Positions 1,569 through 30,852 of a stretch of DNA of 64,000 bases are shown here, one piece after another. Under the pieces are notes generated by a model. That model was not told where the DNA came from. It made no database searches and worked only from the letters and a program-made list of their open reading frames with translations. The stretch lies in the NCBI GenBank assembly GCA_034432775.1, contig DAOUBH010000019.1, positions 9,719 through 73,718 of the forward strand. The letters are read 5' to 3'. This DNA is from Chloroflexota bacterium. GTDB taxonomy: Bacteria; Chloroflexota; Chloroflexia; DAOUBH01. A program made the position numbers and the translations under genes. The first letter of the stretch is position 1. Every line of letters begins with the position of its first letter.

Positions 1569-1639
1569 TTTCTCACCTCCTTGCTCCGCTCGATGCCTAA
1601 CCCAATACGCTGTACCAACCGATCCGGAGTTCGGCTCCT

Positions 1640-9578: not shown

Positions 9579-9588
9579 CCTAGGCCCT

Positions 9589-11337: not shown

Positions 11338-11354
11338 GGCACTAGACCTCCGCC

Positions 11355-15535: not shown

Positions 15536-15585
15536 CAGGCTACCCCCCGGTGTTTTCTGCACCATTGTATCTTTTTCATCCACAC

Positions 15586-16467
15586 TCATCTACTTGCTGG
15601 GCTCAAAACCTCGCCTATGAGACGCGCCACATCCTTGGGGGTCACTGCTACCCCTATGCCGCACCGCTCAAAGGCCTCTATCTTCGACCGGTATGAGCCC
15701 ATGCCGCGGGTTATGATGGCCCCAGCATGCCCCATCTGTTTTCCCTCTGGAGCTGTCCTGCCGGCGATTATGCCCACTACTGGCTTGGTCACATGGGATG
15801 CCACGTATTCAGCAGCTTCCTCTTCTGCCACACGACCTATTTCCCCAATGATGACTATAGCCTTGGTCTGCTGATCCGCTTCGAACCTCTCCAAGATGTC
15901 CACGAAGGAAACACCTGTTACTGGATCGCCTCCAATGCCAACACAGGTGGACTGGCCGAAACCGGCCTTGGTGAGGGTATCTGCTACCAGGTACGAAAAC
16001 GTACCACTTCGGGAGACGATACCTACAGGACCAGGTCTATAAATGTGGCCCGGCATGAAGCCGATGACGCACTCTCCAGGAGTTATGATGCCAGGAGAAT
16101 TAGGGCCTATCATGACAGCTCCGGTTTCGCGCACCTTGAAGGCCATCATCATGGCGTCCCGCACAGGCACTCCCTCGACCACACAAGCTATGAAGCCGAT
16201 CCCAGCGTCGAGGGCTTCGAAGACGGCATCCAAGGTGTAGGGGGCTGGCACAAAGGTGATAGTCGCATCGGCATGATGATCAGCCAACGCATCCTTCACA
16301 GAATCGTAAATAGGGACCCCATGTACCTCGCTGCCACCCTTGCCAGGGGTAACTCCGGCTACGATGCGCGTCCCGTACTGCATCATGAGGCCGGTATGAT
16401 ACTCGCCGAACCTTCCCGTCATGCCTTGAGCTATCACTCGAGTGTTACGGTCGACGAGTATGCTCAC
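15586..16467 (-). CDS. sucD: Succinyl-CoA synthetase alpha subunit
   Basis: GTG start overlapping the sucC stop; QGMTG, GPNSPG, SRSGT, GIGGDP, MGHAGA (phospho-His). Confidence 0.9.
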   Translation of the reverse strand: MSILVDRNTRVIAQGMTGRFGEYHTGLMMQYGTRIVAGVTPGKGGSEVHGVPIYDSVKDALADHHADATITFVPAPYTLDAVFEALDAGIGFIACVVEGVPVRDAMMMAFKVRETGAVMIGPNSPGIITPGECVIGFMPGHIYRPGPVGIVSRSGTFSYLVADTLTKAGFGQSTCVGIGGDPVTGVSFVDILERFEADQQTKAIVIIGEIGRVAEEEAAEYVASHVTKPVVGIIAGRTAPEGKQMGHAGAIITRGMGSYRSKIEAFERCGIGVAVTPKDVARLIGEVLSPASR

Positions 16468-17603
16468 TCCGTACTCCTCGCCAGCTTCACGACCCGGTCC
16501 ACAGCTGCATAGAAGTCGGGGACGAAGAACAGGTTGGGCCGGCTCGCCTGCTCCATTATCGCCCGGGCCTCGTCGGAATTCCTGCCCTGGAGGCACACCA
16601 CTACAGGCATAGTGAGGTGCGGCAATCTGTCCATGGCATCGACTATCCTCTCAGCAATCACATCGCAACGCACCCCGCCCCCAAAGACGTTGATGAATAT
16701 AGCCTTCACCCTGGGATTGTCTGCCACGATGGTCAAGCCGTCATAGATACCACCAGCCAATATGCGGTCACCTTCGTCCAGGAAATTGGCTGGCCTGCCT
16801 CCGGCCAACTGGATCATGTCCATAGTGGCCATGGTAAGCCCAGCGCCGTTGCTTATGATCCCGATGTCGCCATCCAGTTCAACGTAGCTGAGGCGTGCCT
16901 TGGCCGCTCTCTCTTCTACATCTGAAGTAAAATTGCGTTCCACTTCCGGATGTCTGAAGAGGGCGTTGCCATCCACATTCAGTCTGGCGTCAGCCGCCAA
17001 GAGACGCCCATCGCTAGTCACCACCAAAGGATTTATTTCAGCCAGTTCAGCGTCCATCTCCCAATAGATTCGGTATAGGGAATGGACGATAGGTTCCGCA
17101 GCCTCCCGGAGTCCCGGCGGCAGCCGTTTCAACAGTCCCCGGACTTGGTACCCGAGGAGCCCGTACCTTGGATCGACACGGACCTGTTCCAGGTTTGAGG
17201 GGCTCTCGGCGGCCACCGCCTCTATCTCCACGCCGCCCTCACTGCTGAACATTACCAGCGGAGATGCCGGGATCCGTCGTGCATCGGTAACAACGCCCAG
17301 GTACAGTTCCTGTGCCACGTCAAGCCACTCTTCTACCAGTAGCTTTCGAACTTGCTCGCCCCGAACCTCGCCACCCAGCAAGGCGGCAGCGGCCTCCAGT
17401 GCTTGCTCCAAGCCTTCTACAAGCCGTATACCCCCGGCCTTGCCGCGACCACCCACCAACACTTGGGCCTTAATGGCGACCCTGGGACCTAGCTCAGCCA
17501 GAGCCCCTTCTACCTCAAGAAGAGATTGGCAAACTATGCCTCTAGCCACCGGGATGCCGAACTGAGCAAATATGGCTTTGGCCTGATACTCGTACAGCTT
17601 CAA
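16464..17603 (-). CDS. sucC: Succinyl-CoA synthetase beta subunit
   Basis: TTG start; LYEYQAK, KAQVLVGGRGKAGGI, EINPL, NGAGLTMATMD, PANFLD, NVFGG. Confidence 0.9.
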   Translation of the reverse strand: MKLYEYQAKAIFAQFGIPVARGIVCQSLLEVEGALAELGPRVAIKAQVLVGGRGKAGGIRLVEGLEQALEAAAALLGGEVRGEQVRKLLVEEWLDVAQELYLGVVTDARRIPASPLVMFSSEGGVEIEAVAAESPSNLEQVRVDPRYGLLGYQVRGLLKRLPPGLREAAEPIVHSLYRIYWEMDAELAEINPLVVTSDGRLLAADARLNVDGNALFRHPEVERNFTSDVEERAAKARLSYVELDGDIGIISNGAGLTMATMDMIQLAGGRPANFLDEGDRILAGGIYDGLTIVADNPRVKAIFINVFGGGVRCDVIAERIVDAMDRLPHLTMPVVVCLQGRNSDEARAIMEQASRPNLFFVPDFYAAVDRVVKLARSTE

Positions 17604-18703
17604 GGCCGCCTCATCACCCCCCGACCTGAAACTTGGAATTGCTCGATGACGCTTACAAGTCTGTCGTTCTCCTCAGGAAGCCCGATAGTGACGCGGAACC
17701 AGCCATCATCGGAGAAGGCCCTCACTATTACTCCGTGGCTCAGAAAATACTCTTGAACGGGCGACGTATCCGCTCCTAACCGTACATAGATGAAGTTCCC
17801 CTGAGTTGGCAGAAACTCCAAGCCAAGCCGCCGATACTCGCAGTAGAGCCTATCCCTTTCGCGGGAGTTGAGCATGGCTCGTTCCTTCACGATATCTTGA
17901 TGCCGCAAGCTCTCAACCGCAGCCCTCTGAGCCAGATCGTTCACTGTGAAGGGCCCCTGGGTCTTCCTAACTTCGGCGATCAGCTGGCTGTTGCCAACGG
18001 CATAGCCTATCCTAAGGCCAGCCAGACCGTATATCTTCGAAAAAGTGCGCAACACCAGAACGTTGGGAAGTTGCACAGCAGAAGGCAGCAACTGCGGGAA
18101 GTCAGGTGCATCGGCGTATTCGTAATAAGCTTCGTCCACTATCACCAGCACATCCTCAGGGATTGCCTCTATAAACCTCTTGAGCTCCCTGTGGCTCACG
18201 TAGGTCCCAGTAGGGTTGTTGGGATTGCAGACTATAACGAGGCGGGTTGCATCATCTACCCGGGCTGCCATGGCCTCTAGGTCGTGCCGCCCTTCCCTCA
18301 GGGGCACTGGTACGGGAACTGAACCAAGTATGCGACAATATATAGAGTAGAGCAGGAACGAAGGATGGGCAAATACTACCTTATCGCCAACACTCACGGC
18401 TGCCATAAAGGCCGCCAGCAGCACTTCGCCGGAACCATTCCCTACTATGACGTTGTCCGGACCCACCCCCAGGTGGGCAGCCAGAGCCCTCCGTACTTCC
18501 CAGCAATCGTTGTCTGGATAACGGTTTAACTCAGCAGCCCATTGGGGAAGCAGCTCCAACACGGGACCGAAGGGCGGCAGCGGAGACTCATTAGAGGCCA
18601 GCTTTACCACTCGATCCAGCCCATAGCGGCGCCGGACCTCCTCGATCCGCAGACCTGGGACATAAGGCGGTATTGCTACCAATTGGGGGCGAAGCTTTAC
18701 CAT
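17600..18703 (-). CDS. hisC: Histidinol-phosphate aminotransferase
   Basis: KLASNE, NRYPD, NPNNPTG, DEAY, RTFSKIYGLAGLRIGY. Confidence 0.9.
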   Translation of the reverse strand: MVKLRPQLVAIPPYVPGLRIEEVRRRYGLDRVVKLASNESPLPPFGPVLELLPQWAAELNRYPDNDCWEVRRALAAHLGVGPDNVIVGNGSGEVLLAAFMAAVSVGDKVVFAHPSFLLYSIYCRILGSVPVPVPLREGRHDLEAMAARVDDATRLVIVCNPNNPTGTYVSHRELKRFIEAIPEDVLVIVDEAYYEYADAPDFPQLLPSAVQLPNVLVLRTFSKIYGLAGLRIGYAVGNSQLIAEVRKTQGPFTVNDLAQRAAVESLRHQDIVKERAMLNSRERDRLYCEYRRLGLEFLPTQGNFIYVRLGADTSPVQEYFLSHGVIVRAFSDDGWFRVTIGLPEENDRLVSVIEQFQVSGRGVMRRP

Positions 18704-18716
18704 CTCCTCTGCTCCT

Positions 18717-18742
18717 GGGCGCCAGGCCCTAGCCTGGCGCCC
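18717..18742. repeat. GC-rich 11-bp inverted repeat between trpB2 and hisC
   Basis: GGGCGCCAGGC-ccta-GCCTGGCGCCC. There is no U-tract on the minus (sense) strand, so a stability or processing hairpin is more likely than an intrinsic terminator. Confidence 0.6.
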
Positions 18743-18757
18743 TTCTACGATATGGAA

Positions 18758-20131
18758 TCAGGCCTGCACCCGCGGCACCTGTTCGAGAGCCTTGTGCACC
18801 AGCTCCTCTGGGTACTCGTAATCGGCCAGTTGCCCGGCCAGATACTCTTCGTAGGCCTTCAGGTCGAAATGCCCGTGCCCGCTCAAGTTGAATAGAATGG
18901 TCTTGGCCTCTCCAGCCTCCTTGGCCAGCAGGGCCTGTTCTATGGCCACCAGCACTGCGTGGGCCGATTCGGGTGCGGGAATGATGCCCTCGGCTCGAGC
19001 GAAATTCACCGCAGCCTCAAAGACAGCTGTTTGGGGTACAGCCTTCGCACTGATGATGCCGTGGTAGGCAAGAGCACTCACGATGGGGGCCATGCCGTGG
19101 TAGCGGAGGCCGCCAGCATGAATGGCCGGAGGTATGAAACTGGAACCCAGGGTGTGCATTCGCAGCAAAGGTGTCATCTGGGCGGTGTCCCCAAAATCGA
19201 AAGTGTAAACGCCCTTGGTAACACTGGGGCAAGCCAGGGGCTCCACGGCGATCACCTCTAGTTTCTGGCCCCGGGTCAGCTTATCCATGATGAAGGGGAA
19301 GGTCAGCCCGGCGAAGTTCGAACCGCCCCCTATGCATCCAATTACCACATCGGGGTAATACCCTGCCTTTTCCATCTGCTTCTTGGCCTCAAGCCCCAAT
19401 ATGGTCTGGTGCATGAGAACGTGGTTGAGAACACTACCCAAGGAGTAATGGGTATCCTCCCTTGTCGCCGCGTCCTCAATGGCCTCCGATATGGCAATAC
19501 CCAGGCTCCCTGGATTGTCGGGATCTTTCTCCAACACTGAACGGCCGTAATTGGTGTCAGGGCTGGGGCTCGGCACAACCTTAGCGCCGAAGGTCTCCAT
19601 GATGATCCTTCGGTACGGCTTCTGGAAGTAGCTCACCTTTACCATGTAGACCTTGCACTCCAAGCCAAAGAAGTTGCAGGCCATGGAGAGGGCGCTGCCC
19701 CACTGTCCAGCCCCGGTCTCCGTAGTCAACCGCTTGATTCCCTCTGCTTTGTTGTAGTAAGCCTGGGCCACAGCGGTGTTAGGTTTGTGGCTGCCTACAG
19801 GGCTAACCCCCTCGTACTTGTAGAAGATCCTGGCAGGCGTGTCCAGAGCCCGTTCCAGCCTCCGAGCCCTGAAGAGCGGTGTCGGCCTCCAAAGGCGGTA
19901 CACATCCATCACGGGTTCGGGTATGTCGATCCACTTGTCCCGGCTGACTTCCTGCTTGATCAGCTCCATGGGGAAGAGCGGCGCCAAATCCTGGGGGCCA
20001 ATAGGTTGCCCTGTACCCGGATGGATAACCGGGGGCAGTTCAAAGGGTAGATCAGCTACGATGTTGTACCACTGCTTCGGTATCTCGTTCTCCTCAAGCA
20101 AGTACTTGTACGTCTCCATGTCCGCCTCCAA
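18758..20131 (-). CDS. trpB2: Tryptophan synthase beta chain type 2 (TrpB2, TrpB-like PLP enzyme)
   Basis: [40 protein letters not shown], plus the long N-terminal extension typical of TrpB2. Confidence 0.93.
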
Positions 20132-20255: not shown

Positions 20256-20687
20256 CTACCGGCGAAGGTTAACACGCTCCTCTCCAAAGTGTTCCTTTAG
20301 CCACCTGAGGCCATCCTCAAAGGTACTGCCCGTAGGGAACACCTCGGCCACACCCATCTCTTTGAGCTTAGGAACGTCTTCCAAAGGTATGGTGCCGCCC
20401 ACCAAAACCACCTTGTCGCCTATGCCCTCCTCCCTCATCCTCTGAAGGATGCGCCTCGTGTAGCCTAAGTGGGCCCCCGAAAGTATGTTGAGGACCACCA
20501 CGTCGACGTCCTCTTGCAGGGCTGCGTTGACTATCTGATCCACGGTCTGGTGGAGCCCTGTATAGATGGCCTCCATGCCATGGTCCTTAAAGTACTTGAC
20601 CAGCAGCTTAGCGCTTACATCGTGGCCGTCCAAACCCGGCTTGGCGACCAGTATCCTGAGGGGACGTCTCTCGACCATGCCCATCAC
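20256..20687 (-). CDS. Cobalamin-binding small subunit of an acyl-CoA mutase
   Basis: KPGLDGHD (DxHxxG-type base-off/His-on motif), YTGLHQT, GGTIP. Confidence 0.92.
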   Translation of the reverse strand: MMGMVERRPLRILVAKPGLDGHDVSAKLLVKYFKDHGMEAIYTGLHQTVDQIVNAALQEDVDVVVLNILSGAHLGYTRRILQRMREEGIGDKVVLVGGTIPLEDVPKLKEMGVAEVFPTGSTFEDGLRWLKEHFGEERVNLRR

Positions 20688-22355
20688 CTAAAATATGTTC
20701 ATAGGCTCTCGAAACTCGCCGAAGACATCCCGAAGCACAGCCGTCATCTCGCCGACTGTGCAGTAAGCCTTCACAGCCTCCAAGGTGGCGGGCATTATGT
20801 TCTCGCCGCTCTCGGCAGCCCTCCGCAGCTCCCGAAGGGCTCGGTCTACAGCAGCCTGGCTGCGCATCTCTTTGACCTTACGCAGGGACTCCAATTGTTC
20901 CTCGATGACCCGCTCATCCCGCTTCATGAGCTTCATGGGAGGCTGCTCGTTTTCCTTAACGAAGATGTTCTCCCCCACCACCAGCTGCTCCTTGGTCTCG
21001 TAAATTGCCTTGTACCGCTTGTAACTTTCCTCTAGCACGATCCGCTGTACGTAGCCGTCCTCTATGGATTTGATGATGCCGCCCCGGTCCCAGATGTGCT
21101 GCATGAACTTCTCGATCTCTTCCTGCATGCGGTTGGTCAAGCTCTCGACGAAGTAGGAACCGGCCAAGGGATCTACGGTGTTGGCTACCCCCGACTCGTA
21201 AGCTATGATCTGTTGAGTCCGCAGGGCAATTTCTTGGGCCTCGGGTGTAGGTATAGCGTAGGCCTCGTCCTTAGTGTTGACGGTGAGGGCCTGCACTCCC
21301 CCCAGCACAGTGGCCAAGGCCTCGATGGTGCCCCGGATAATGTTGTTGTCGGGTTGGTGGTAGGTGAAGGTCCCGCCTGGGGTCCCAGCGAACCATCGCC
21401 ACATCCAGGAGGTGGGTTTCTTGGCACCATAGCGGTATCGGATGAGCTTTGCCCAGATACGCCTAGCAGCTCGGAACTTCGCTACCTCTTCGAAAAGATC
21501 CATGTAAGAGGCCATATTGAATGTAACCCTGTGGACGAAGGAATCGATGTCCAACCCTCTGGACAAAGCATTCTCGATGTAGGCACAGGCATTCAGGAAA
21601 CAGAGCCCTACCTCCTGGACGGCATTGGCCCCACTCTCCCTGATATGGTAGCCACAGACACTCACAGGATTGAAGCGAGGCATGTACTTGGAGCAGAACT
21701 CGAACATGTCGCCGATGAGGCGCATGGAATGCTCGAGAGGAAATATCCAGGCACCACGGCCAATGTACTCCTTCAAGATATCGTTCTGTACGGTGCCGGC
21801 TACCCTCTCCATGGGAACACCTTGCTTCTCAGCAACAGCCACGTACATGGCCGTGATGATGGGAGTAATAGCGTTAATGGTGAAGCTAGTGCTCAGTCGA
21901 TCCAGAGGCAGCCCATCGAAGAGGATCTCGAAGTCCAGCAGGCTATCGATGGCCACACCTACGGTGCCCACCTCGTCCTGAAATTCCTCATGGTCGGAGT
22001 CGTAGCCCATCTGAGTGGGTAGATCAAAGGCGCATGACAATCCGGTCTGGCCCTCTTCCAGGAGCCACTTCCAAAGCTGATTGGTGTAGCGAGGTGTGCC
22101 AAAGCCGGAGTACTGGCGCATGGTCCACAGCTTCTTGCGGTACATAGTGGGGTATATGCCTCGGGTGAAGGGGTACTCGCCCGGAAGCCCCATATCCCGC
22201 ATGTAATCCATGCCCTCTACATCTTTGGGTGTGTAGAGAGGTTTGATCTCGATGCCCGATGACGTGTAGACCTTGGGCAGTTCACCGATTTGGTTCTCTT
22301 TCTCCCACCGCTCCAGCTCCTCGTCTAGTGGTCCCACTCCTACCTCGATAGCCAT
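20688..22355 (-). CDS. B12-dependent acyl-CoA mutase large subunit (methylmalonyl-CoA mutase family, divergent barrel residues)
   Basis: PGEYPFTRG, WTMRQYSGF, FDLPTQ, QNDILKE, GYHIRE, ALRTQQI. The usual RFHTQTAG reads RWFAGTPG. Confidence 0.9.
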   Translation of the reverse strand: MAIEVGVGPLDEELERWEKENQIGELPKVYTSSGIEIKPLYTPKDVEGMDYMRDMGLPGEYPFTRGIYPTMYRKKLWTMRQYSGFGTPRYTNQLWKWLLEEGQTGLSCAFDLPTQMGYDSDHEEFQDEVGTVGVAIDSLLDFEILFDGLPLDRLSTSFTINAITPIITAMYVAVAEKQGVPMERVAGTVQNDILKEYIGRGAWIFPLEHSMRLIGDMFEFCSKYMPRFNPVSVCGYHIRESGANAVQEVGLCFLNACAYIENALSRGLDIDSFVHRVTFNMASYMDLFEEVAKFRAARRIWAKLIRYRYGAKKPTSWMWRWFAGTPGGTFTYHQPDNNIIRGTIEALATVLGGVQALTVNTKDEAYAIPTPEAQEIALRTQQIIAYESGVANTVDPLAGSYFVESLTNRMQEEIEKFMQHIWDRGGIIKSIEDGYVQRIVLEESYKRYKAIYETKEQLVVGENIFVKENEQPPMKLMKRDERVIEEQLESLRKVKEMRSQAAVDRALRELRRAAESGENIMPATLEAVKAYCTVGEMTAVLRDVFGEFREPMNIF

Positions 22356-22366
22356 TTGACACCTCC

Positions 22367-23158
22367 CTATAAGTCAGCCCTGAGTGAACCTTCTGGATCG
22401 ACACGAAGCCTGAGCACTTCCAATTCCTCTGCAGTAGGCTCTGGCATGGGATCTATATGATCAGGGACTACCAGCTCAAACCCCGTGTTCTTGACGACGG
22501 TATCAACGTCGACGCCCGGAAAGAGGTGCTTTATGCGCATAGCTTTACTTTCCTCTTCGAAGTCGAAGATGCCCAAGGGTGTCAGCACGTACTCGGGCCC
22601 TCCTCCGGGCAGACCGAGCTTCATGCGCGCATCGGCTCCGCCCGCACCCCAGCCTACAGCAGAAACGTAGTCACACCGCTGCACAAAGACCCTGGGCGAG
22701 TGGCTGTTTGTGTAAATGAAGAACCGTTTGACCATGGACATAACTGTGGATGTACCCACACTGCCTGGACCCCGGAACTTAAGTCGCCGCGGATCGGAAC
22801 CTACGCCGATGAGGTTGCAGTTGCCGAAGCGATCTATCTGTATCCCACCTGCAAAGCACAGGTCCATACGCCTGATGGCGTTGGTGAGCAACTCAAGGGG
22901 CATTATGGCCTCAGCCCACTTCGCCATACGTGGGTCAACGATATGGGCAAGACTCCCCACTTTCTGGACATGGGCCAGATTGGTGAAGTAGGAGAGCACG
23001 TTCAACCTCAGATCCGGAGCGTGGGTAAGATGGGCTAGAAAGACCCCCGCAGTAGGCACCGGAAGGTTCGTACCCACCGAAACATAATCCCCGTTCTTTA
23101 TCTGCCTCGCAATAAATATGGCTATCAGCTCCTTGGCCGATACTTGAGCATGCCCCAT
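22367..23158 (-). CDS. Class I CoA-transferase-like beta subunit (GctB/IpdB/AibB fold) lacking the catalytic Glu
   Basis: VGTNLP, QIDRFGNCN, GSVG, LTPLGIFDF, NTGFEL, VDP. APDLRLNVLS sits where GctB has APDCHIIVES. Confidence 0.85.
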   Translation of the reverse strand: MGHAQVSAKELIAIFIARQIKNGDYVSVGTNLPVPTAGVFLAHLTHAPDLRLNVLSYFTNLAHVQKVGSLAHIVDPRMAKWAEAIMPLELLTNAIRRMDLCFAGGIQIDRFGNCNLIGVGSDPRRLKFRGPGSVGTSTVMSMVKRFFIYTNSHSPRVFVQRCDYVSAVGWGAGGADARMKLGLPGGGPEYVLTPLGIFDFEEESKAMRIKHLFPGVDVDTVVKNTGFELVVPDHIDPMPEPTAEELEVLRLRVDPEGSLRADL

Positions 23159-23160
23159 TC

Positions 23161-24057
23161 CTATTCCACCGTCAGCGCTATGATGCGGTCCATGCCGACC
23201 CGTTCCAGATACTCCCCATGGCTGCGAGGCCCCAAAATGTAGGTCTCCAGGTACTCTCGGAAGGGACCATCGTCGCCCTCCAGAGCCGCCTTTGCCACAG
23301 CCACATATCGGCGCAGATGCTCCTCATCCAACTTGTAGAACCCCTCGAAGGAGAGCGGATGGGCACCGAAGGGAGCAAGCACCACCATGTCTACGAACTC
23401 GCAAGGAACCGTTGTCTCTGTAGGGGCGCGGCGTATTACCTCGTTGGGAACTATGCGCTCAACTTCCACAACCACCTTGTCGGCAGCCTGGGCCAGAAGG
23501 ATATCAGCAAATTGGGCCCCCAAGTGCTGCACATTCCCGTAGATATCGGCCTGCGCCGCATGGAGAAAGACCACATCCAGATGGATCGGAGGTGCCGCTA
23601 CAAGGGGCGGCCCTCCGAAGGGGTCCTCCACCCACTTAAGGCGAGGATTCAAATCGGGGATCGAAGTGCCCACTGGTCCCCGAACAGGCAGGAAGGGCAG
23701 TTCCTGGATCTTGGCCTTCAGTTGGGCAAGGACAAGCCCTAGGTCTACCTCCAGAACTTCGATGGCGCCTTCGGAAGCACGCCTACCGAAGAAGGGTCCT
23801 ATGGGCGCCACGGACTCCAGACCAACATAGGGGGTAGAAACGGTCTTGACGACCCCCAACCCTATCAGAAGGTCGACATCGTAGCTGGAAGGCGGCGCAA
23901 AGACGGTCAGATCCTTTACACCGCGCCTGGCCAGAGCGCGCAGCAATGCCATGGGCTTCGCCGCGGTGATGAAGCCGCCTATCCCTATGGTGTCTCCGTC
24001 CCTTACAAGGCTTACGGCTTCCTCGAAAGTAGCGACAACCGGCGTCCTTTCAGCTAT
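23161..24057 (-). CDS. Class I CoA-transferase-like alpha subunit (GctA fold); probable ATA start
   Basis: TFEEAVSLVRDGDTIGIGGF...KPMALLRAL lies in frame upstream of the first ATG (23952). LPFLPVRG, HAAQADIYGN and PFGAHP are present. GGAGG sits 6 nt before ATA at 24057. Confidence 0.85.
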   Translation of the reverse strand: MAERTPVVATFEEAVSLVRDGDTIGIGGFITAAKPMALLRALARRGVKDLTVFAPPSSYDVDLLIGLGVVKTVSTPYVGLESVAPIGPFFGRRASEGAIEVLEVDLGLVLAQLKAKIQELPFLPVRGPVGTSIPDLNPRLKWVEDPFGGPPLVAAPPIHLDVVFLHAAQADIYGNVQHLGAQFADILLAQAADKVVVEVERIVPNEVIRRAPTETTVPCEFVDMVVLAPFGAHPLSFEGFYKLDEEHLRRYVAVAKAALEGDDGPFREYLETYILGPRSHGEYLERVGMDRIIALTVE

Positions 24058-24068
24058 GGTGCCCCTCC

Positions 24069-24938
24069 CTACGAACCCTTTGTGTAATCGTAGAAGCCTC
24101 TCCGGGTCTTCCTCCCCAGCCTGCCAGAACGAACCATCTGAGTAAGAAGGTAACTCGGCCTGTATTTGGGATCACCGAATTCTTGCATCATGTAGGTCAT
24201 GTTTTCCCAAACGATGCCCACGCCGTTGGTGTAGTCGGCAAGCTCCAACGGACCCATGGGATGCCCGAGGCCCAGTTTGATGGCCTTGTCGATATCCTCG
24301 GCACTTGCTATGCCCTCGGCCAGCATGCAAGCAGCCTCGTTTATGATCACCGATACCATGCGGCTGGTTATAAAACCCGGCGTGTCTTTTATGACCACCG
24401 TCTCCTTGCCCAGCCGTGCGGACAACGCCTTGATGGTCTCTACTGTGTCTTCGTCGGTCTGAGCACCCCGCACGATCTCAACTAGCCGCATTACGGCTAC
24501 AGGGTTGAAGAAGTGCATCCCGATAACCTTGTGGGGACGGCGGGTGGCCGAAGAAATGTCAGTTATGCTCAGGGCCGACGTGTTGCTAGCCAAAATGGTG
24601 TCTGGACGGGTCAGCCGATCTAGGTCGGCGAAGAGAACTTTCTTCAAATCCATTTTCTCAGGTATGGACTCTATCACGAGATCCACATCGCCCACAGCCT
24701 CTTCTAGGGACAGGTAACCACGGAGTCGCCCCATGACCTGGACCGCCTCCTCGGCAGTCATCTTGCCCTTCTCCACGAAAAACTTGCTGAGGTTGTCGGA
24801 TATCCCCTTCAAAGCCCTGTCCAGCAGCACCTGATCGACATCCCTCAGGCTGACCGTAAGGCCTGCCATAGCCATGACTTGGGCGATCTGGCTGCCCATA
24901 ACGCCGGCGCCGACTACGGCAACTCTATTGACTTGCAT
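24069..24938 (-). CDS. 3-hydroxyacyl-CoA dehydrogenase (second paralog)
   Basis: GAGVMGSQIA, ESIPE, SNTS, GMHFFNP, HPMGP, GRKTRRGFY. Confidence 0.95.
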   Translation of the reverse strand: MQVNRVAVVGAGVMGSQIAQVMAMAGLTVSLRDVDQVLLDRALKGISDNLSKFFVEKGKMTAEEAVQVMGRLRGYLSLEEAVGDVDLVIESIPEKMDLKKVLFADLDRLTRPDTILASNTSALSITDISSATRRPHKVIGMHFFNPVAVMRLVEIVRGAQTDEDTVETIKALSARLGKETVVIKDTPGFITSRMVSVIINEAACMLAEGIASAEDIDKAIKLGLGHPMGPLELADYTNGVGIVWENMTYMMQEFGDPKYRPSYLLTQMVRSGRLGRKTRRGFYDYTKGS

Positions 24939-25587
24939 GCTTTACCTCCGGAAGGGTTTCGTGACTGAGGAGAGATCGCAGTACCATGGCCTGACATGTG
25001 GCATAGAGGTCGTCCAAGGCAACTAGGTGGCTCCGTGCCTTCCCAGACTCCGCCATCAGGATTACACCTGTCCACATACCCCAAATGGTATTGGTGACTC
25101 TCCAGCTATCGTCGAGGCGAAAGAGTCCCTGCTGCGCACCGTCCCTCAGAATGCCATCCAGGATGCCGAGACAGATGTTGGCCTTTCCGACAATTACTTC
25201 GTAGAGATGCCGCGGAACCCTTACCAGCTGGCTTCCTTGATGGATGAGAAACATGACATCGAAGTAGGCCCTGTGGTCCTTATAGAAGGTGAGGTACGCT
25301 TCCCCCAGGGCTAGCAGCCGCTCCGTGGGAGAACCCTTCATGCTCCCTACTGGACCCCAATATTGATCGTAGAGGACGTCCAAACCCTCCGCCAATACCC
25401 AGCCATACAGCTCCTCTTTGCTTTGAAAGTGCAGGTATATGGCACCCTTGCTGATGTCTGCTTGGTCAGCTATGTCCTCCATAGTAGCAGCCATAAAGCC
25501 CCTCGAGAAGAAAACATCCCTCGCGGCTGCTAGGATGTCCGCCCGCCGTGCCTGCCGCTCCTTAAGCCTGCGGTCGCCCCCGGCCAA
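24925..25587 (-). CDS. TetR/AcrR family transcriptional regulator
   Basis: TTG start; HTH ATMEDIADQADISKGAIYLHFQSKEEL. Confidence 0.92.
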   Translation of the reverse strand: MAGGDRRLKERQARRADILAAARDVFFSRGFMAATMEDIADQADISKGAIYLHFQSKEELYGWVLAEGLDVLYDQYWGPVGSMKGSPTERLLALGEAYLTFYKDHRAYFDVMFLIHQGSQLVRVPRHLYEVIVGKANICLGILDGILRDGAQQGLFRLDDSWRVTNTIWGMWTGVILMAESGKARSHLVALDDLYATCQAMVLRSLLSHETLPEVKHASQ

Positions 25588-25604
25588 ATTCTATTGCTCC
25601 GTAG

Positions 25605-25648
25605 TGACTGATAGTCAGATTCTAACCGTCGGTCAGAACGCCTGTCAA
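25605..25648 (-). promoter_or_regulatory. Sigma70 promoter (TTGACA-18-TAGAAT) with two overlapping TGAC-N5-GTCA-type operators
   Basis: -35 at 25648-25643 and -10 at 25624-25619. Palindrome TGACTGATAGTCA at 25605-25617 and near-palindrome TAACCGTCGGTCA at 25623-25635. Confidence 0.7.
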
Positions 25649-25864: not shown

Positions 25865-26920
25865 TTGGACGAACGGGAAGCCATCAGACTTACCGAACTG
25901 GCCTCCTGCGCCGGTTGAGCTGCTAAGATAGGTCCTTCGGACCTGGCGCAGGTTCTGCGCCCTCTGCGCAAGTTCACACACCCGGATCTGTTGGTGGGCC
26001 TCCAGTGGGGTGACGATGCCGCCGTATACCGGCTGGACTCCGATAGGGCCCTCATTGCCACTGTCGACTTCTTCCCGCCCATTGTCGACGCCCCCTACAC
26101 CTACGGTGCTATAGCTGCTGCCAACTCCCTCAGCGACATATTTGCCATGGGCGGTGAAGTGTTACTGGCCCTGAACGTCGTGGCCTTTCCCGACACCCTT
26201 TCGAGGTCAATCCTCAGCGAAATCCTTCAAGGTGGCGCCGACAAGGTCGCCGAAGCGGGAGGAATTATCGCTGGAGGACACACTGTGACCGACAGGGAAC
26301 CAAAGTATGGCCTGTGTGCTATCGGTCTAGTCCACCCTGACAAAACAATGACCAAAGCCGCAGCAAGGCCCGGCGATCTGTTGGTCCTGACCAAGCCCTT
26401 GGGGACAGGGGCTATTACCACTGCCCTGAAGGCTAAAGTCGTCGACTCCGAGCACCTGAGGGGCGCCGTGCATTCCATGCTGACCCTCAACCGAAGGCCA
26501 TCGCAGATTTTCGTATCCTTGGGAGTACGAGCCTGTACCGACGTCACAGGCTATGGCCTCTTGGGCCACGCCCTGGAGATGGCTGATGCTTCCGGCGTCA
26601 GTATAGAGATCGATGTGGAAAAGGTGCCCTTACTGCAAGGCGCCTACGAGTATGCCCAGCGGGGCATCCTGCCTGGTGGTGCCTGGCGAAACCGCGATCA
26701 TCTCCTTCCCCCAGACGGAGAGCCCAGAGTGTACTATCCGCCTGGCATCCCAGAGCCGATCTTACACTTGCTTTACGACCCAGAGACTTCGGGGGGGTTG
26801 CTCGCAGCCGTGCCGCTGTCCCGCATCGAGGCTCTGGAAGACCAGTTTGAGGCGTCTAACCTTCCCCTTTGGATAGTGGGAAGAGTCAGAGAGGGCCGCG
26901 ATATCGTCCTGAAACTCTGA
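25865..26920 (+). CDS. selD: Selenide, water dikinase (selenophosphate synthetase), selenoprotein with Sec at codon 18
   Basis: TTG at 25865 after a GAGGAG SD gives MDEREAIRLTELASCAG-U-AAKIGP, with in-frame TGA at 25916-25918, continuous with the 25991 ORF (DDAAVY, TVDFF, NSLSD, GGHT, DVTGYGL, DPETSGGLL). Confidence 0.93.
25920..25951 (+). promoter_or_regulatory. Candidate bacterial SECIS element of selD
   Basis: Stem AGGTCC-ttc-GGACCT begins 11 nt after the UGA, with a lower CTGC/GCAG helix. Confidence 0.6.
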
Positions 26921-26997: not shown

Positions 26998-29820
26998 CTA
27001 CCCAGCCACCTTGCCCAACATGGCAGCCTTAACCTTCTGAGGTTTAGCCGGGATTGCCGTCAGCCTCACACCGATGGCATCATAGATCGCGTTGCAGATC
27101 GCTGCGGCCATGGGTATAAGACCCGCCTCCGATACACCTTTTGCGCCGAAGGGACCAAGGGGATCCTCGTCTTCGATGAGGATCACCCGAAAATCCGGGC
27201 ACTGCTCGATGGTAGGCACCCGCACCTTACCAAAGGTATCGGTCAATACGTAACCACCCTCGACTTTAAACTCCTCTGTCAGGGCGTAACCCATTCCCTG
27301 GAGGGCTGCCCCGATGATCTGACCCTCTACCCCTCTCGGGTTAATCGCCTTTCCTACGTCGTGGACCGATATCACCTTTACCACACGAACCTTGCCAGTG
27401 GCCTCGTCCACTTCAACAATAGCCACTTGAGTGGCGTACGTATAGTTGAAGTGGTAGAAGGAATGTGCCGGGTCGGCATTGGGTATTCCCTTGTCGGCCA
27501 AAGCGGGATCCGGCAAGTGATCCGTCTTCGGCGCTATAAAGACGTACTGCGACTTAAGTTCCTTCCCCTCGGTGACCGTCAATTTGGCCAGCATGTCCAG
27601 GCTCAACAGCCTGTCGCCCTGTCTGGTACGGAACTCACCGTCGGTGTAGACTATATGCTCGTAGGGTATGCCCATTCGTTCGGCCACTTCGATCTTGGCC
27701 TGCCGCTCGATGTCGTCAAGGCAACCCAGAACTGCCTTACCGACGAGCATGGTCATTCTCGAGGCGCAAGTCGACCCAGCGCTGGGAGTATTGCAAGTAT
27801 CCGGCGGCATTACTGCTACGCGATCCAAGGGCACCCCGAACCGCTGACTGGCCATTATGGCCAAGACCGTCTCATGTCCCTGCCCGATCTCGGCGCCTCC
27901 CGTCCGGATCAACAAGCGTCCGTCCTCGGTCATCTCCACGGCAGCGCCCACGGCTTCAGGCACCGCAACTCCCATGCCAGAGTTCTTGAAGCAGGAGGCC
28001 ACTCCTACGCCATACCGTCGGCCAGGCGCTGGAGAGGGCAGCTTTCTGAGTTCTTCTTCTAGGGCTTCTTTCGCAGCCCTGAGGGTTTCGGTCAGCCTTA
28101 CAACTCCAGCTGTACCAACGAGAGGCTGACCCACGGCCGTGACATCCCCAGGCCTCAGAGCATTGAGCTCCCTCACAGTGAAGGGATCCATCCCAAGCAC
28201 TCTGGCCAAAGCGTCCATCTGCTGCTCTACGGCAAAGTGAGCCTGGGGAACGCCGAAGCCCCGAAAGGCGCCTGCCACAGGGTTGTTAGTATAGACGCCT
28301 ATGGCCTCGACCCTAAAGTTGGGCACCCTGTAGGGCCCCCCTCCGAAGATGGTCACCGCTTCGACCACTGCCGATCCCGTGGAAGCGTAGGCCCCCGAGT
28401 CTAGCAGCACCTTAACCTCCATGGCCACGAGAGTCCCATCTCGCTTGGCTCCCAACCTATGATAGATGCGGGTGGGATGCCGCTTTGGATGGTTCTTCAG
28501 CGATTCGTACCGGGAAAACACTAACTTGCAGGGCCGGCCGGTCTTCAGCACACCCAGGGCAAGCATGTTCTGGACAGATATGTCGCACTTGCTGCCGAAG
28601 GATCCCCCTGTAGGCATGTGCACGATCCTGACCTTCTCCACAGGGAGACCTAGTACCTGGGCAACCTGCCTGGCCTCTTCATGGGGATTCTGATCCCCTA
28701 CGTAAATGGTAACGCCTCCGTCTTCGTTGGGCTCGGCCACCCCGGACTCTACTTCGAGGTAAGCGTGTTCCTGCCAAGGGGTGGAATAAAAGCCTTCTAC
28801 GATCACGTCACAATCAGCCCAGGCAGCGTCCGGGTCGCCTTTGAGCACATGACTTCTGAAGAGGATGTTGGTTCCCTGTGGTCCAACAATTGGCGCGTCG
28901 GCCTCCAATGCTCTCTCGGGGGTATCCACCACTTCGAGGGGCCGATAGGTCACCTTAATGCGCTTGACCGCCTCTTCGGCTATCTCGGGTGTCTCGGCAT
29001 ACACTACGGCCACCGGGTCTCCTACATACCTGACCTTGTCGTCGCATAGGGCCGGTTGGTCGTCCACAATCTGGCCATAGCGGTTCTTTCCGGGCACATC
29101 CTTATATGTCAGGACCGCAGCTACCCCAGGCGTGGCTTCGGCCTCGCTCGTGTCGACGTCGAGGATCTCTGCGTGGGGATACTCGGCCCACAGGACTTTG
29201 CCATGAAGGACTCCAGCAGGATAAAGGTCAGCAGAGAACTGCAACCTCCCGGTGACGGTTTCTAAAACCCTCAGCCTGCGGGGGCTGTGTGCAAGTACCG
29301 GATCTTCGATGGGAGGAGGGACTTCGCCCCGGATCCTGGCAGCAGCTATCTGGGTTGCCCTCTGAACCGCAGCGATGATCCTAGGATATTCTCCACACCT
29401 ACAAATGTTGCCTTTGAGCGCCCTTTTTATATCCTGCGGAGTGGGCGATGGGTTCTTTCCCAGGAGGGCAGCCGCAGAAATTATCAGACCAGGCGTACAG
29501 AAGCCGCATTGGAGGGCACCATGCTCTACAAAGGCTTCCTGCACAGGGTGCAACATTCCACCCTCGGCAAGGCCCTCGATGGTAACAACCTCTTTACCTT
29601 GTAGCCTCCCCAGTTTCAGCAGACAGGCCTTTTCCGCTTCTCCATTGACCAGCACCATACAGGTCCCGCAACTTCCTTCCGAACATCCATCCTTAGTTCC
29701 CGTAAGGTGCAGGTGATCCCTCAGGTACGACAACAGGGTCATTTGGGCTGGACCTTCGACCGTGACCTCACGGCCATTGATCGTAAAGGTGACCTGGGTT
29801 GTCTCTGACACCCGCTGCAT
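26998..29820 (-). CDS. Xanthine dehydrogenase/aldehyde oxidoreductase family Mo-hydroxylase, 2x[2Fe-2S] domain fused to the Mo-binding subunit
   Basis: GCSEGSCGTC, QCGFCTPG, CRCG, GGSFGSK, AFRGFG, GAEIGQG, ASR, GAKGVSEAG; start at MQRVSE after a GGAGAGGTGA SD. Confidence 0.9.
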   Translation of the reverse strand: MQRVSETTQVTFTINGREVTVEGPAQMTLLSYLRDHLHLTGTKDGCSEGSCGTCMVLVNGEAEKACLLKLGRLQGKEVVTIEGLAEGGMLHPVQEAFVEHGALQCGFCTPGLIISAAALLGKNPSPTPQDIKRALKGNICRCGEYPRIIAAVQRATQIAAARIRGEVPPPIEDPVLAHSPRRLRVLETVTGRLQFSADLYPAGVLHGKVLWAEYPHAEILDVDTSEAEATPGVAAVLTYKDVPGKNRYGQIVDDQPALCDDKVRYVGDPVAVVYAETPEIAEEAVKRIKVTYRPLEVVDTPERALEADAPIVGPQGTNILFRSHVLKGDPDAAWADCDVIVEGFYSTPWQEHAYLEVESGVAEPNEDGGVTIYVGDQNPHEEARQVAQVLGLPVEKVRIVHMPTGGSFGSKCDISVQNMLALGVLKTGRPCKLVFSRYESLKNHPKRHPTRIYHRLGAKRDGTLVAMEVKVLLDSGAYASTGSAVVEAVTIFGGGPYRVPNFRVEAIGVYTNNPVAGAFRGFGVPQAHFAVEQQMDALARVLGMDPFTVRELNALRPGDVTAVGQPLVGTAGVVRLTETLRAAKEALEEELRKLPSPAPGRRYGVGVASCFKNSGMGVAVPEAVGAAVEMTEDGRLLIRTGGAEIGQGHETVLAIMASQRFGVPLDRVAVMPPDTCNTPSAGSTCASRMTMLVGKAVLGCLDDIERQAKIEVAERMGIPYEHIVYTDGEFRTRQGDRLLSLDMLAKLTVTEGKELKSQYVFIAPKTDHLPDPALADKGIPNADPAHSFYHFNYTYATQVAIVEVDEATGKVRVVKVISVHDVGKAINPRGVEGQIIGAALQGMGYALTEEFKVEGGYVLTDTFGKVRVPTIEQCPDFRVILIEDEDPLGPFGAKGVSEAGLIPMAAAICNAIYDAIGVRLTAIPAKPQKVKAAMLGKVAG

Positions 29821-29860
29821 CGGGAAAATCACCTCTCCTTGCATTGACGATAAGAACTCA

Positions 29861-30682
29861 TTACTGGTGCTCCCACTGTTCCCCCAAAGCCCTGACAATG
29901 TCACCCCGGGTCACAATGCCCACCAGTTTGCCTTCGTGGACCACTGGGAGGCGACGAATGCGGTTAGCCACCATGAGCCTCCCGGCTTCCACAGCTGGTA
30001 CCTCGGGCGACGTAGTGATGACGTGGGTAGTCATAATGTGTCCCACCGTGTCCCTATCTTCGTCGGCGTGAGTCAAGACGTCATGCTCCGTAGCAATACC
30101 GAGAATTTTCCCGCTCTCGTCCACAACAGGGACACCGCTGATACCATACTTGTTGAGGAGCACAGCCAACTGTCCCACACTGCAGTCGGGTCCTACCGTG
30201 ATGACTGGGCTGTTCATTATGTCCGCAACCTTTATCTGGAGAATGCTGAGCTCAGTTCTGACTTGAGGATAGGCCTTGGTGATAACCTGATCCCCCCACT
30301 TCATAGGGGCTTCGGCTTCTTGCGGGCGCCCGACAGCCAGATCGTCCTTGATCTCATCGACCGTTACCTCCACAACAGCGGCAGGGAAGGGCGAACTCTC
30401 CATCTCTTCCTTGACAATACGCGCCCTGCCCCGTATGCTGATGGCCATACCCCTGCCCATGGCTACAAGCCTGACCTTGCCCGACCGACGAATGTTCCGC
30501 AGACTGGCTATATCGCGATGGATGGCCATAGACAGCGTTCGCCTATCCTTCACTTTGATCCACGACATGGGAGCAGTATGGGGCCAACCATCCTCATCCA
30601 CGGTAGCCAAAATGAGCGTTGGAACATGCTCCAGGTTCTGCATGATCTTGTCTGTCAGCTCTCCACCTATCACCTTCCCCAT
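29861..30682 (-). CDS. Pyridoxamine-5'-phosphate-oxidase-like FMN-binding split barrel fused to a CBS pair
   Basis: N-terminus LILATVDEDGWPHTAPMSW...SLRNIRRSGKV; C-terminus VADIMNSPVITV...ISGVPVVD...IRRLPVV...LVGIVTRGD. Confidence 0.75.
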   Translation of the reverse strand: MGKVIGGELTDKIMQNLEHVPTLILATVDEDGWPHTAPMSWIKVKDRRTLSMAIHRDIASLRNIRRSGKVRLVAMGRGMAISIRGRARIVKEEMESSPFPAAVVEVTVDEIKDDLAVGRPQEAEAPMKWGDQVITKAYPQVRTELSILQIKVADIMNSPVITVGPDCSVGQLAVLLNKYGISGVPVVDESGKILGIATEHDVLTHADEDRDTVGHIMTTHVITTSPEVPAVEAGRLMVANRIRRLPVVHEGKLVGIVTRGDIVRALGEQWEHQ

Positions 30683-30852
30683 TTCCCAGCCCTCCCCTTT
30701 GGTTCCCATAGTAACATCGCGGTGCCACGATGTCAATGCCTTGTTTAATTTAGTTCACTGTCATTGAAAACAGCCTACAGCCACTCGAGGGTTACAGCCA
30801 TAGGCCCCCGAAAGCTGTGCTACAATTGGTCAGCACCCGCTGAGGTCAGCCT

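Follow-up and report, generated by a model that had tools for sequence, protein, structure and literature searches.

Positions 20,256 to 25,648 of a 64,000-nucleotide stretch of contig DAOUBH010000019.1 (Chloroflexota bacterium, assembly GCA_034432775.1; the whole stretch is hereafter the window) hold a six-gene unit encoding a GctAB-like coenzyme A (CoA)-transferase-fold pair (alpha/beta) and a variant B12-dependent acyl-CoA mutase. The unit is most likely the front end of a cluster of about 25 kb, from about 1640 to 29904, and the best explanation of the whole, to which we give slightly less than an even chance, is that it serves the anaerobic breakdown of indole-3-acetate (auxin) or a closely related compound, with alpha/beta carrying out an intramolecular CoA transfer. 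The original prediction proposed an undescribed carbon-skeleton pathway here; its outline is in fact already known as the anaerobic iaa route (PMC8360864, PMC5214803). What appears to be new is the variant in the window and its Bacillota relatives, where a GctAB-like pair lacking the catalytic glutamate (Glu-less) and SucCD replace the CoA-transferase IaaL and the GGG-type acyl-CoA dehydrogenase (ACAD) IaaF. A residue signature separating the N287/G330 mutase clade from methylmalonyl-CoA mutase (MCM) also appears to be new. Neither the Bacillota variant nor the signature was described within the library searched, where the gene combination of hydantoinase, mutase and glutaconate CoA-transferase was not found either.

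The genes central to this reading are the following.

25587-24925, minus strand: tetR (PF00440, E 2e-17), which opens the six-gene unit
24938-24069, minus strand: hbd, 3-hydroxyacyl-CoA dehydrogenase of the Hbd type (PF02737 and PF00725)
24057-23161, minus strand: alpha, GctAB-like CoA-transferase-fold pair (PF01144, E 2e-16), with a putative ATA start
23158-22367, minus strand: beta, of the same GctAB-like pair (PF01144, E 5e-14), with Leu at the position of the catalytic Glu54
22355-20688, minus strand: acyl-CoA mutase large subunit, an IaaG-like variant (PF01642, 649 bits)
20687-20256, minus strand: mutase B12-binding small subunit (PF02310, TIGR00640)
17603-16464 and 16467-15586, minus strand: SucC and SucD (NF001913, 397 bits; cut-off 370), together (15586-17603) an ADP-forming dicarboxylate-CoA ligase
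13418-11355 and 11337-9589, minus strand: HydA and HydB (caprolactamase models, 665 and 350 bits)

The first six genes are tightly packed on one strand, as predicted. The start of hbd lies within tetR, with 14 nt in common; 2 nt separate alpha from beta, 11 nt separate beta from the mutase, and the large-subunit gene runs directly into that of the small subunit. Closely spaced minus-strand genes run on past them to about 1640, and the functional unit is much larger than 20256-25648 and no self-contained six-gene operon. The remainder of the window consists of housekeeping genes.

We identify the route as iaa-like because its set of functions, namely a HydAB-type lactamase, a B12 mutase for a substituted succinyl-CoA, CoA transfer, decarboxylation, beta-oxidation and a molybdenum (Mo)-hydroxylase, matches the iaa pathway. 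The iaa gene cluster of Aromatoleum aromaticum was reportedly the subject of work by Ebenau-Jehle in 2012. It confers anaerobic degradation of indoleacetate (PMC8360864, PMC5214803). It comprises the ligase IaaB, a Hyd-type lactamase, IaaL, the IaaGH mutase and IaaF. IaaL is a phenylsuccinyl-CoA transferase that works intramolecularly and, linked to succinate, also intermolecularly, the B12 mutase IaaGH interconverts (2-aminophenyl)succinyl-CoA and (2-aminobenzyl)malonyl-CoA, and IaaF is a decarboxylating benzylmalonyl-CoA dehydrogenase of a subclass that always reads GGG for YEG and whose members all lie in iaa clusters (PMC8360864). The window and the iaa cluster share a HydAB-type ATP-dependent lactamase, a split B12 mutase for a carboxylated acyl-CoA, succinate-linked CoA chemistry, beta-oxidation genes and a nearby Mo-hydroxylase. 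As in IaaGH systems, the mutase is linked with a Hyd-family lactamase (HydAB, 9589-13418; PMC5214803), but not with a GGG-type ACAD or a class III IaaL. In their place the window and its Bacillota relatives have the Glu-less pair, SucCD and an ACAD with the normal Glu. The ligases also differ, the iaa enzyme being PaaK-like and the window's candidate ADP-forming, and the window has tryptophan- and serine-type genes interleaved.

From the observed gene identities, residue patterns, co-occurrence and clade structure we infer the following substrate and direction. An aryl-acetate, for example indole-3-acetate, would be converted to its CoA ester, and the Mo-hydroxylase would hydroxylate the position adjacent to the ring nitrogen. 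HydAB would open the resulting oxindole lactam with ATP; the product would be (2-aminophenyl)succinyl-CoA or else the unesterified diacid, to be activated by SucCD. From this diacid a SucCD-type ligase would probably make the same distal isomer as the ring opening of indoleacetyl-CoA, and a thioester on the carboxyl distal to the aryl-bearing carbon would be the wrong isomer for the mutase. Since the mutase needs the proximal isomer and ring opening gives the distal one, an isomerising CoA transfer would be indispensable, and alpha/beta is the only CoA-transferase-fold candidate for it. Our best guess for alpha/beta, ranked first, is therefore that it shifts the CoA of (2-aminophenyl)succinyl-CoA from one carboxyl to the other as an analogue of IaaL, using the free carboxylate of the substrate and a five-membered cyclic anhydride in place of an enzyme glutamate. 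An anhydride of this size forms easily from a succinyl-type substrate. SucCD would recycle succinate and hydrolysed diacid, so that alpha/beta and SucCD would together stand in for the class III IaaL. The variant mutase would then turn the aryl-succinyl-CoA into (2-aminobenzyl)malonyl-CoA, with Tyr89, Arg207 and His244 holding the carboxylate and thioester and the altered barrel residues 287, 328, 330 and 364 giving space for the aryl group. Decarboxylation and oxidation, followed by crotonase, Hbd and thiolase, would yield acetyl-CoA and 2-aminobenzoyl-CoA; the predicted action of the dehydrogenase on a 3-hydroxyacyl-CoA is compatible with this order. The substrate could also be another aryl- or alkyl-substituted succinate.

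The mutase (residue numbers as in P. shermanii MCM) keeps the carboxylate and thioester contacts of MCM, namely Tyr75, Thr85, Tyr89, Thr195, Gln197, Arg207, Tyr243, His244 and Arg283; the motifs 'RQY', 'IGRGAW' and 'GYH' carry Tyr89, Arg207 and His244. Compared with the MCM structures 1req and 2xij, with which it has Tyr89, Gln197, Arg207, Tyr243, His244 and Arg283 in common, it is changed at F287N, H328F, Q330G and H364T, and additionally at W334G. Residues F287, H328, Q330 and H364 face inwards on barrel strands 6-8 and are common to P. shermanii, human and split-type MCMs and to HcmA, the large subunit of 2-hydroxyisobutyryl-CoA mutase (HCM). The window has N, F, G and T instead, and the expected active-site-region substitutions were thus located at four barrel positions invariant in MCM and HCM. 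Smaller or more hydrophobic residues at these positions would fit an aryl substituent in the pocket.

Matches of the mutase to solved structures (1req, 2xij, 4r3u) ranged from E 3e-141 to 1e-110, with HcmA on top. HcmA (4r3u) likewise pairs a TIM-barrel large subunit with a B12 small subunit, but has Ile90, Asp117 and, at the position of MCM Arg207, Gln where the window has Tyr, Ala and Arg, and an HCM/acetone route of the kind in Desulfococcus (B12 mutase plus Hbd) was rejected on these residues. The window pattern also differs from that of a protein resembling ethylmalonyl-CoA mutase (ECM) from Tritonibacter (L173; H328G, Q330 kept, H364Q, N366P), which its taxonomy and fused architecture suggest to be a true ECM. 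In a neighbour-joining tree without bootstrap, the N287/G330 mutases (287/328/330/364 patterns NFGT, NIGA and NLGA) grouped with a small number of further unusual variants in a single clade that excluded proteins of the canonical split MCM, fused MCM, HcmA-like and ECM-like (outgroup) types. The view that this is no ordinary MCM is upheld: the window mutase belongs to none of the canonical MCM, HCM and ECM-like groups. A 'glutaryl mutase' converting glutaryl-CoA to methylsuccinyl-CoA was considered and fits neither the conserved Arg207/Tyr89 geometry nor the epimerase-like genes of related loci.

In the small subunit the DxHxxG motif has become DGHDVS (20613-20630), with Ser for Gly; this occurs only in the window and two close relatives (L001/L002), and all other small subunits examined have Gly. 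Other non-canonical mutases were also seen. That of Metallumcola (L003) keeps Tyr89, Arg207 and His244 and carries Y243A, R283L, H328G and Q330V, while L106, L116 and L122 encode mutases with the same three residues and other barrel patterns. Mutases of the HFGS type are accompanied by a carboxyltransferase and an epimerase-like gene.

The genomic neighbourhood of the variant mutases was analysed in 80 metagenomic loci around mutase relatives, typed by residues 287/328/330/364; loci with at least 5 kb of flank (34 canonical, FHQH; 25 variant, NFGT/NIGA/NLGA) were compared for neighbours within 8 kb. Among these loci, which are not phylogenetically independent, HydA was found beside 18 of the 25 variant mutases and none of the 34 canonical ones (Fisher p = 7e-10). 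Conversely, MeaB (6/34) and a carboxyltransferase (9/34) accompanied only canonical mutases (0/25 variant loci for each). The absence of epimerase and MeaB genes noted for the operon extends to the whole window, as no MeaB, epimerase, class III CoA-transferase or second mutase was found anywhere in the 64 kb, and the usual partners of MCM (MeaB, epimerase, propionyl-CoA carboxylase/transcarboxylase) are missing over the same range.

It is very improbable that the cluster serves ordinary metabolism, with a plain MCM, with alpha/beta and the adjacent SucCD as a propionate/succinate or acetoacetate CoA-transferase system, and with HydAB and the rest as unrelated neighbours. The presence of Tyr89, Arg207 and His244, the very high Pfam and TIGR00641 scores and the public annotation of relatives as 'methylmalonyl-CoA mutase' and 'glutaconate CoA-transferase' would agree with it. 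It is countered by the four altered barrel residues and the separate mutase clade, by the strong HydAB association with no MeaB, epimerase or carboxylase, and by the loss of the catalytic Glu across the beta family, given that the Glu-less IpdAB shows no transferase activity (PMC5380842).

Outside Bacillota, the variant loci typically run mutase, ACAD, class III CoA-transferase, HydA, HydB, B12 subunit, with an Hbd or short-chain dehydrogenase/reductase (SDR), a crotonase or MaoC and a thiolase nearby. L090, whose NFGT mutase belongs to the window's clade, has exactly this core with a GGG-ACAD. The ACAD beside the variant mutase reads GGG for YEG in nine non-Bacillota loci, and a GGG-ACAD together with a class III transferase accompanies same-clade mutases in L090-L092, L094, L123, L125, L140, L150 and L168. 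The nearest relatives of these class III transferases are the succinate-glutarate and succinyl-CoA:mesaconate CoA-transferases. The Bacillota loci of the alpha-beta-mutase(-SucCD)-HydAB type contain neither a class III transferase nor a GGG-ACAD, and their ACADs read FEG, FAG or YEG. Similarly, no GGG-type (IaaF-like) ACAD was found in the 64-kb window, whose only ACAD reads FEG. A tblastn search of plasmids with a GGG-ACAD query returned no close IaaF orthologue.

In seven loci (L104, L110, L111, L115 and L127, each time upstream of McmS, and L116 and L122) the variant mutase genes are preceded by a gene for a 140-aa VOC-family protein similar to methylmalonyl-CoA epimerase (94 bits, cut-off 115); the window has none.

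An aliphatic substituted succinate derived from methylsuccinate, itaconate or mesaconate, passing from methylsuccinyl-CoA through ethylmalonyl-CoA to butyryl-CoA, with another lactam feed (5-oxoproline, or a pyrimidine or nicotinate derivative), is an improbable alternative. It would account for the good scores of short-chain models (crotonase, 3-hydroxybutyryl-CoA dehydrogenase, Bcd/AcrC-like ACAD), for the class III transferases just described, for epimerase-like VOC genes beside some variant mutases and for accessory genes that vary between loci (DHO_dh, fumarate-reductase-like). The mutase residues are unlike those of the ECM-like protein (H328G, H364Q, N366P), however, and GGG-ACADs indicate benzylmalonyl-type substrates specifically (PMC8360864). 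An aromatic substrate is also indicated by L089, whose genes include one for a PaaK-like aryl-acetate ligase, one for a Mo enzyme with 4-hydroxybenzoyl-CoA reductase as its nearest relative and, immediately upstream of alpha, an arylmalonate-decarboxylase-like gene. A Glu-less (FAG) ACAD adjoins alpha/beta in this locus.

Three further routes were rejected. An ethylmalonyl-CoA-type route on a C5 dicarboxylate with HydAB as carboxylase, retained only within the improbable alternative above, conflicts with HydAB being much nearer to lactamases than to acetone/acetophenone carboxylases and with the differing ECM-like residues. A glutamate fermentation of the hydroxyglutarate type (5-oxoprolinase, 2-hydroxyacid dehydrogenase, GctAB) has no dehydratase, and the aminotransferase/PGDH genes are lineage-limited and biosynthetic-looking. 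Oxidative pyrimidine or nicotinate routes, suggested by the Mo-hydroxylase and DHO_dh, leave the GGG-ACADs and the aryl-type accessory genes unexplained.

The synteny expected for the six genes held in part. About a dozen Bacillota loci share the core order of alpha, beta, mutase large and small subunit, in many cases with SucC-SucD and HydA-HydB behind it; among them are Desulfosporosinus, Desulfitobacteriaceae, Clostridia metagenome-assembled genomes (MAGs) and Metallumcola, the last with a different mutase variant. The full six, with tetR and hbd ahead of alpha, are confined to the nearest relatives (L001, L002 and L176), which share the whole arrangement including the Mo-hydroxylase and SelD. 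SucCD adjoins alpha/beta or the mutase in L003, L011, L021/L086, L087 and L089, a recurrent adjacency that fits succinate-linked CoA chemistry. In Metallumcola ferriviriculae (L003, CP121694, 8320-14903) a TRAP transporter, crotonase, alpha, beta, mutase and SucCD are found together with no HydAB.

The alpha/beta pair has the paired PF01144 subunits of a class I CoA-transferase and lacks the catalytic Glu of its beta subunit. The best solved relatives of alpha are GctA (1poi, E 6e-32), IpdA (8e-31) and AibA (5e-20), and those of beta are GctB (5e-30, about 34% identical), IpdB (2e-14) and AibB (1e-10). GctAB of Acidaminococcus fermentans thus shares the two-gene architecture and is the closest structure for both subunits. 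In the alignment, 'IVE54SG' of GctB lies opposite 'NVLSY' of beta, with Leu for Glu54, whereas the QxDxxGN motif is conserved as in GctAB. The ping-pong mechanism of GctAB-type enzymes requires the beta glutamate, part of an (S)ENG-type motif, which forms an acyl-enzyme anhydride. The Leu in the window rules out such an enzyme-bound glutamyl anhydride. At least 1,281 alpha/beta relatives were found, and with GctB and IpdB added to the alignment none of 18 family members had an acidic residue in the Glu54 column; the claim that beta lacks the catalytic Glu is thereby confirmed for the window and beyond. In the window's own clade a hydrophobic Leu or Met is conserved at this position.

Three characterised systems also do without this Glu. 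ThnP of anaerobic naphthalene degradation is a Glu-less family I CoA-transferase that moves CoA between the carboxyls of a dicarboxylic acyl-CoA, strictly intramolecularly and with a proposed internal anhydride (PMC11659651). It is a single-chain enzyme of the Cat1 subgroup and the window pair a GctAB-type heterodimer, and we liken them by mechanism rather than homology. AibAB of Myxococcus xanthus (5mzw), a 3-methylglutaconyl-CoA decarboxylase of the same GctAB-like fold, has Cys56 at the Glu position, where Ala, Ser, Asn or Val is tolerated (PMC7756340). It is weaker in similarity (E 5e-20, 1e-10), AibB Cys56 corresponds to the Leu of the window, and its operon context is alternative isovaleryl-CoA biosynthesis (HMG-CoA synthase and the reductase AibC); neither of these genes was found in the window or in related loci, and the window has mutase, SucCD and HydAB instead. 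The AibAB operon encodes a TetR-type regulator, AibR, just as the window unit has tetR. IpdAB, the COCHEA-CoA ring-opening hydrolase of Mycobacterium and Rhodococcus (6co6, 6con), shares the class I fold without the beta Glu; its steroid ring C/D context (EchA20, IpdC, IpdF, FadA6, KstR2) was not found in the window. Alpha aligns 'GAIEVLEVD' with 'GAIEAREMDE' of IpdA. A conserved catalytic Glu, Glu105, occurs in IpdA of RHA1. IpdAB, with Gly57 in IpdB, has no CoA-transferase activity (PMC5380842).

These relatives supply two other roles for alpha/beta. In the first, which we regard as rather unlikely, the pathway is the same and alpha/beta acts as a decarboxylase of the AibAB type, forming 3-(2-aminophenyl)propionyl-CoA from (2-aminobenzyl)malonyl-CoA for oxidation by the FEG ACAD, so that alpha/beta and the ACAD replace IaaF while SucCD replaces IaaL by activating the diacid. 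Every step would then have a gene in the window and the normal FEG motif would be explained. The distributions are complementary: nine variant-mutase loci outside Bacillota have a GGG-ACAD, and the alpha/beta loci within Bacillota have none. AibAB is of the same GctAB-like lineage (E 5e-20, 1e-10) and tolerates non-Glu residues (PMC7756340), and the conserved Leu/Met of the window's clade is hydrophobic. However, SucCD would have to thioesterify the hindered carboxyl by the aryl-bearing carbon, as there would otherwise be no source of the regioisomer that the mutase needs, and most family members have no nearby mutase to make malonyl-type CoA esters. Moreover, in L089, with its arylmalonate-decarboxylase-like gene and FAG ACAD by alpha/beta, decarboxylation can be assigned to a gene other than alpha/beta, and in Metallumcola, where no ACAD is nearby, the crotonase-family gene could be the decarboxylase.

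In the second, quite improbable in our judgement and the less favoured of the two, alpha/beta is an IpdAB-like C-C hydrolase acting on the 3-oxoacyl-CoA made by Hbd, for example cleaving 2-aminobenzoylacetyl-CoA to anthranilate and acetyl-CoA, or opening a cyclic beta-keto-acyl-CoA. Hbd stands immediately upstream of alpha in the window's lineage and a crotonase does so in Metallumcola, IpdA and IpdB are the second-best solved relatives, family members elsewhere lie in steroid-like clusters with thiolase/DUF35, SDR and enoyl-CoA hydratase (ECH), and IpdAB itself combines the missing Glu with a lack of CoA-transferase activity (PMC5380842). Yet the array already includes a gene for a normal thiolase, the genes most closely linked to alpha/beta and most broadly conserved beside it in Bacillota are those of the mutase and SucCD rather than Hbd, and beta is far nearer to GctB (5e-30) than to IpdB (2e-14).

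The context slightly favours intramolecular CoA transfer by alpha/beta over the cleavage, hydrolysis or decarboxylation of the original prediction. The family, which spans Bacillota, Actinomycetota, Acidobacteriota, Binatia, Rokubacteria, Proteobacteria and Asgard archaea, also fits this role elsewhere. In 80 family loci from other phyla most alpha-beta pairs have no mutase at all, their commonest neighbours being SDRs, SCPx-type thiolases with DUF35, ACADs, crotonases, BKACE and OYE, and beta-oxidation modules of this kind (SDR, SCPx-thiolase/DUF35, ECH, ACAD) would have a place for a substituted-succinate CoA-transferase. We tentatively extend this to the Glu-less family as a whole, as a somewhat unlikely but broader proposal: it would be a mechanistically new branch of the family I CoA-transferases that dispenses with an enzyme nucleophile, works through the cyclic anhydride of a 1,4-dicarboxylyl-CoA, performs both intramolecular and succinate transfer and, with SucCD, displaced IaaL in Bacillota, while the N287/G330 clade would set the residue rules for aryl-succinyl-CoA.

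Asgard MAGs (Freyarchaeota, Jordarchaeia; L014, L016, L019, L020) encode the Glu-less pair at about 50% identity adjoining an SCPx-type thiolase and DUF35, and two Rokubacteria loci, L017 (6882) and L018 (10790), have alpha-beta followed directly by an ACAD with GAG or GGG, lacking the catalytic Glu, and no mutase nearby. The closest alpha/beta loci without mutase linkage (L010, L013) had uninformative contexts.

Several points weigh against intramolecular CoA transfer in an indole-3-acetate pathway. Among Glu-less proteins of known function, those nearest to alpha/beta decarboxylate (AibAB) or hydrolyse (IpdAB) rather than transfer CoA, and ThnP comes from a different family I subgroup (Cat1). 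The likeness to iaa rests on gene content and the published GGG motif, and not on direct alignment with the Iaa proteins of Aromatoleum. With FEG in the only ACAD and no GGG-type IaaF in the window, the decarboxylation step is left without a gene. The window HydA and HydB are only 41% and 37% identical to their L090 counterparts, too little to establish a common substrate specificity; the loci of the contingency table are not phylogenetically independent, and eight of its NFGT loci were collected via the beta subunit; and the TrpB2, HisC and SerA/SerC-like genes in the array show that it is not a purely catabolic operon.

The start of alpha is most likely a rare ATA codon at 24057, 11 nt past the hbd stop, as judged from the sequence. 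The open reading frame from the ATG at 23952 is about 35 residues shorter at its N-terminus than GctA, IpdA and AibA. The frame is open up to 24072, no in-frame ATG, GTG or TTG occurs between the upstream stop and residue 36, and the ATA sits 6-7 nt after GGGAGGGG. We place the start here because this strong ribosome-binding site precedes it and because L001 (84% identical) has the same arrangement, an ATA after AAGGAGG, where the gene caller picked a later GTG.

The promoter with twin operators that had been predicted ahead of tetR was recovered in part: the promoter is near consensus, and the twin operators are plausible with only one clean palindrome. A sigma-70-like promoter (TTGACA-18 nt-TAGAAT, 25648-25619, minus strand) matches 11 of 12 consensus positions, and both hexamers are kept in L001 and L002. 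The perfect palindrome TGACTATCAGTCA (TGACT-ATC-AGTCA, 25617-25605) is conserved in these two relatives, and the imperfect TTCTGACCGACGGTTAGAA (25638-25620), with which it has a TCTGAC half-site in common, is degraded in both. The two overlap the -10 and +1 region; they were read directly from the sequence, as a repeat finder (seed 6) reported neither. TetR has an N-terminal helix-turn-helix (PF00440) and a palindromic candidate operator at its own promoter, with weak similarity to the acyl-CoA-sensing FasR, FadR, AcuR and KstR; it would be autoregulated at the palindromes, probably sensing a pathway acyl-CoA. Hbd scored 348 bits on a 3-hydroxybutyryl-CoA dehydrogenase subfamily model (cut-off 408). 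An Rfam scan of 15-31 kb found no cobalamin riboswitch and no other RNA.

The other genes of the array and its upstream side are as follows.

9063-9689, minus strand: stand-alone V4R protein of 208 aa with XylR_N and V4R small-molecule-binding domains
6954-9059, minus strand: ADP-forming acyl-CoA synthetase (PF13607, PF13549, PF13380, NCBIfam)
6943-5771, minus strand: ACAD with FEG motif
5618-4740, minus strand: second Hbd
4724-3939, minus strand: crotonase
3973-2867, minus strand: LeuB-like Iso_dh protein, passing the 3-isopropylmalate dehydrogenase cut-off
2824-1640, minus strand: thiolase
468-1691, minus strand: class V (archaeal-type) fructose-1,6-bisphosphate aldolase/phosphatase, closing the co-directional array
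25871-26920, plus strand: SelD, with an in-frame TGA at 25916-25918
26998-29904, minus strand: fused [2Fe-2S]/molybdopterin hydroxylase (TIGR03311, 720 bits; cut-off 830)
29861-30736: PNPOx-CBS protein, after the Mo-hydroxylase

HydAB matched N-methylhydantoinase and caprolactamase structures far better than acetone carboxylase and is predicted to be an ATP-dependent lactamase of the hydantoinase/oxoprolinase family. The ADP-forming acyl-CoA synthetase, with homologues in L089 and L123, is a candidate either for aryl-acetate CoA ligation or for thioester cleavage with gain of ATP. The Mo-hydroxylase, a candidate ring hydroxylase, is closest to selenium-dependent xanthine dehydrogenase, has no FAD subunit gene adjacent and keeps its position in L176; homologous Mo enzymes occur in three other variant-mutase loci. 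It may be selenium-dependent and serve the catabolic cluster. SelD lies between the Mo-hydroxylase and the tetR operon, as in L176, and its in-frame TGA ('LTELASCAG*AAKIGP') coincides with the catalytic Cys17 of the E. coli enzyme, from which SelD is predicted to contain selenocysteine.

The LeuB-type beta-decarboxylating dehydrogenase gene sits between those of crotonase and thiolase, overlapping the crotonase stop. The V4R gene directly follows HydB and is not kept beside HydB in other loci. Interleaved in the catabolic array, also on the minus strand, are TrpB2 with a HisC-type aminotransferase (17600-20131) and a class V aminotransferase with a phosphoglycerate dehydrogenase (PGDH)-like gene (13428-15589), the latter scoring just below the SerA cut-off. 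These biosynthesis-like genes are limited to the window's own lineage. As a set they could provide phosphoserine and tryptophan from indole, and they might mark a link to tryptophan/indole metabolism or be mere neighbours.

For the enzyme families concerned, many genes named 'methylmalonyl-CoA mutase' and 'glutaconate CoA-transferase' are probably misannotated, which bears on reconstructions of propionate and succinate metabolism in metagenome-assembled genomes; the N287/G330 signature, HydAB linkage and absence of MeaB tell the variant mutase from true MCM. The altered barrel residues offer a starting point to understand or engineer B12 mutases for bulky 2-substituted succinyl-CoAs. The alpha/beta pair represents a large Glu-less branch of a textbook fold in which the three known Glu-less relatives differ in chemistry, and the cluster offers it a concrete candidate substrate, phenylsuccinyl-CoA or benzylmalonyl-CoA. 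If the proposed pathway is correct, it would be modular, with two solutions for the CoA-transfer and decarboxylation steps, and anaerobic degradation of the auxin/oxindole type would reach Bacillota and, via related loci, Dormibacteraeota.

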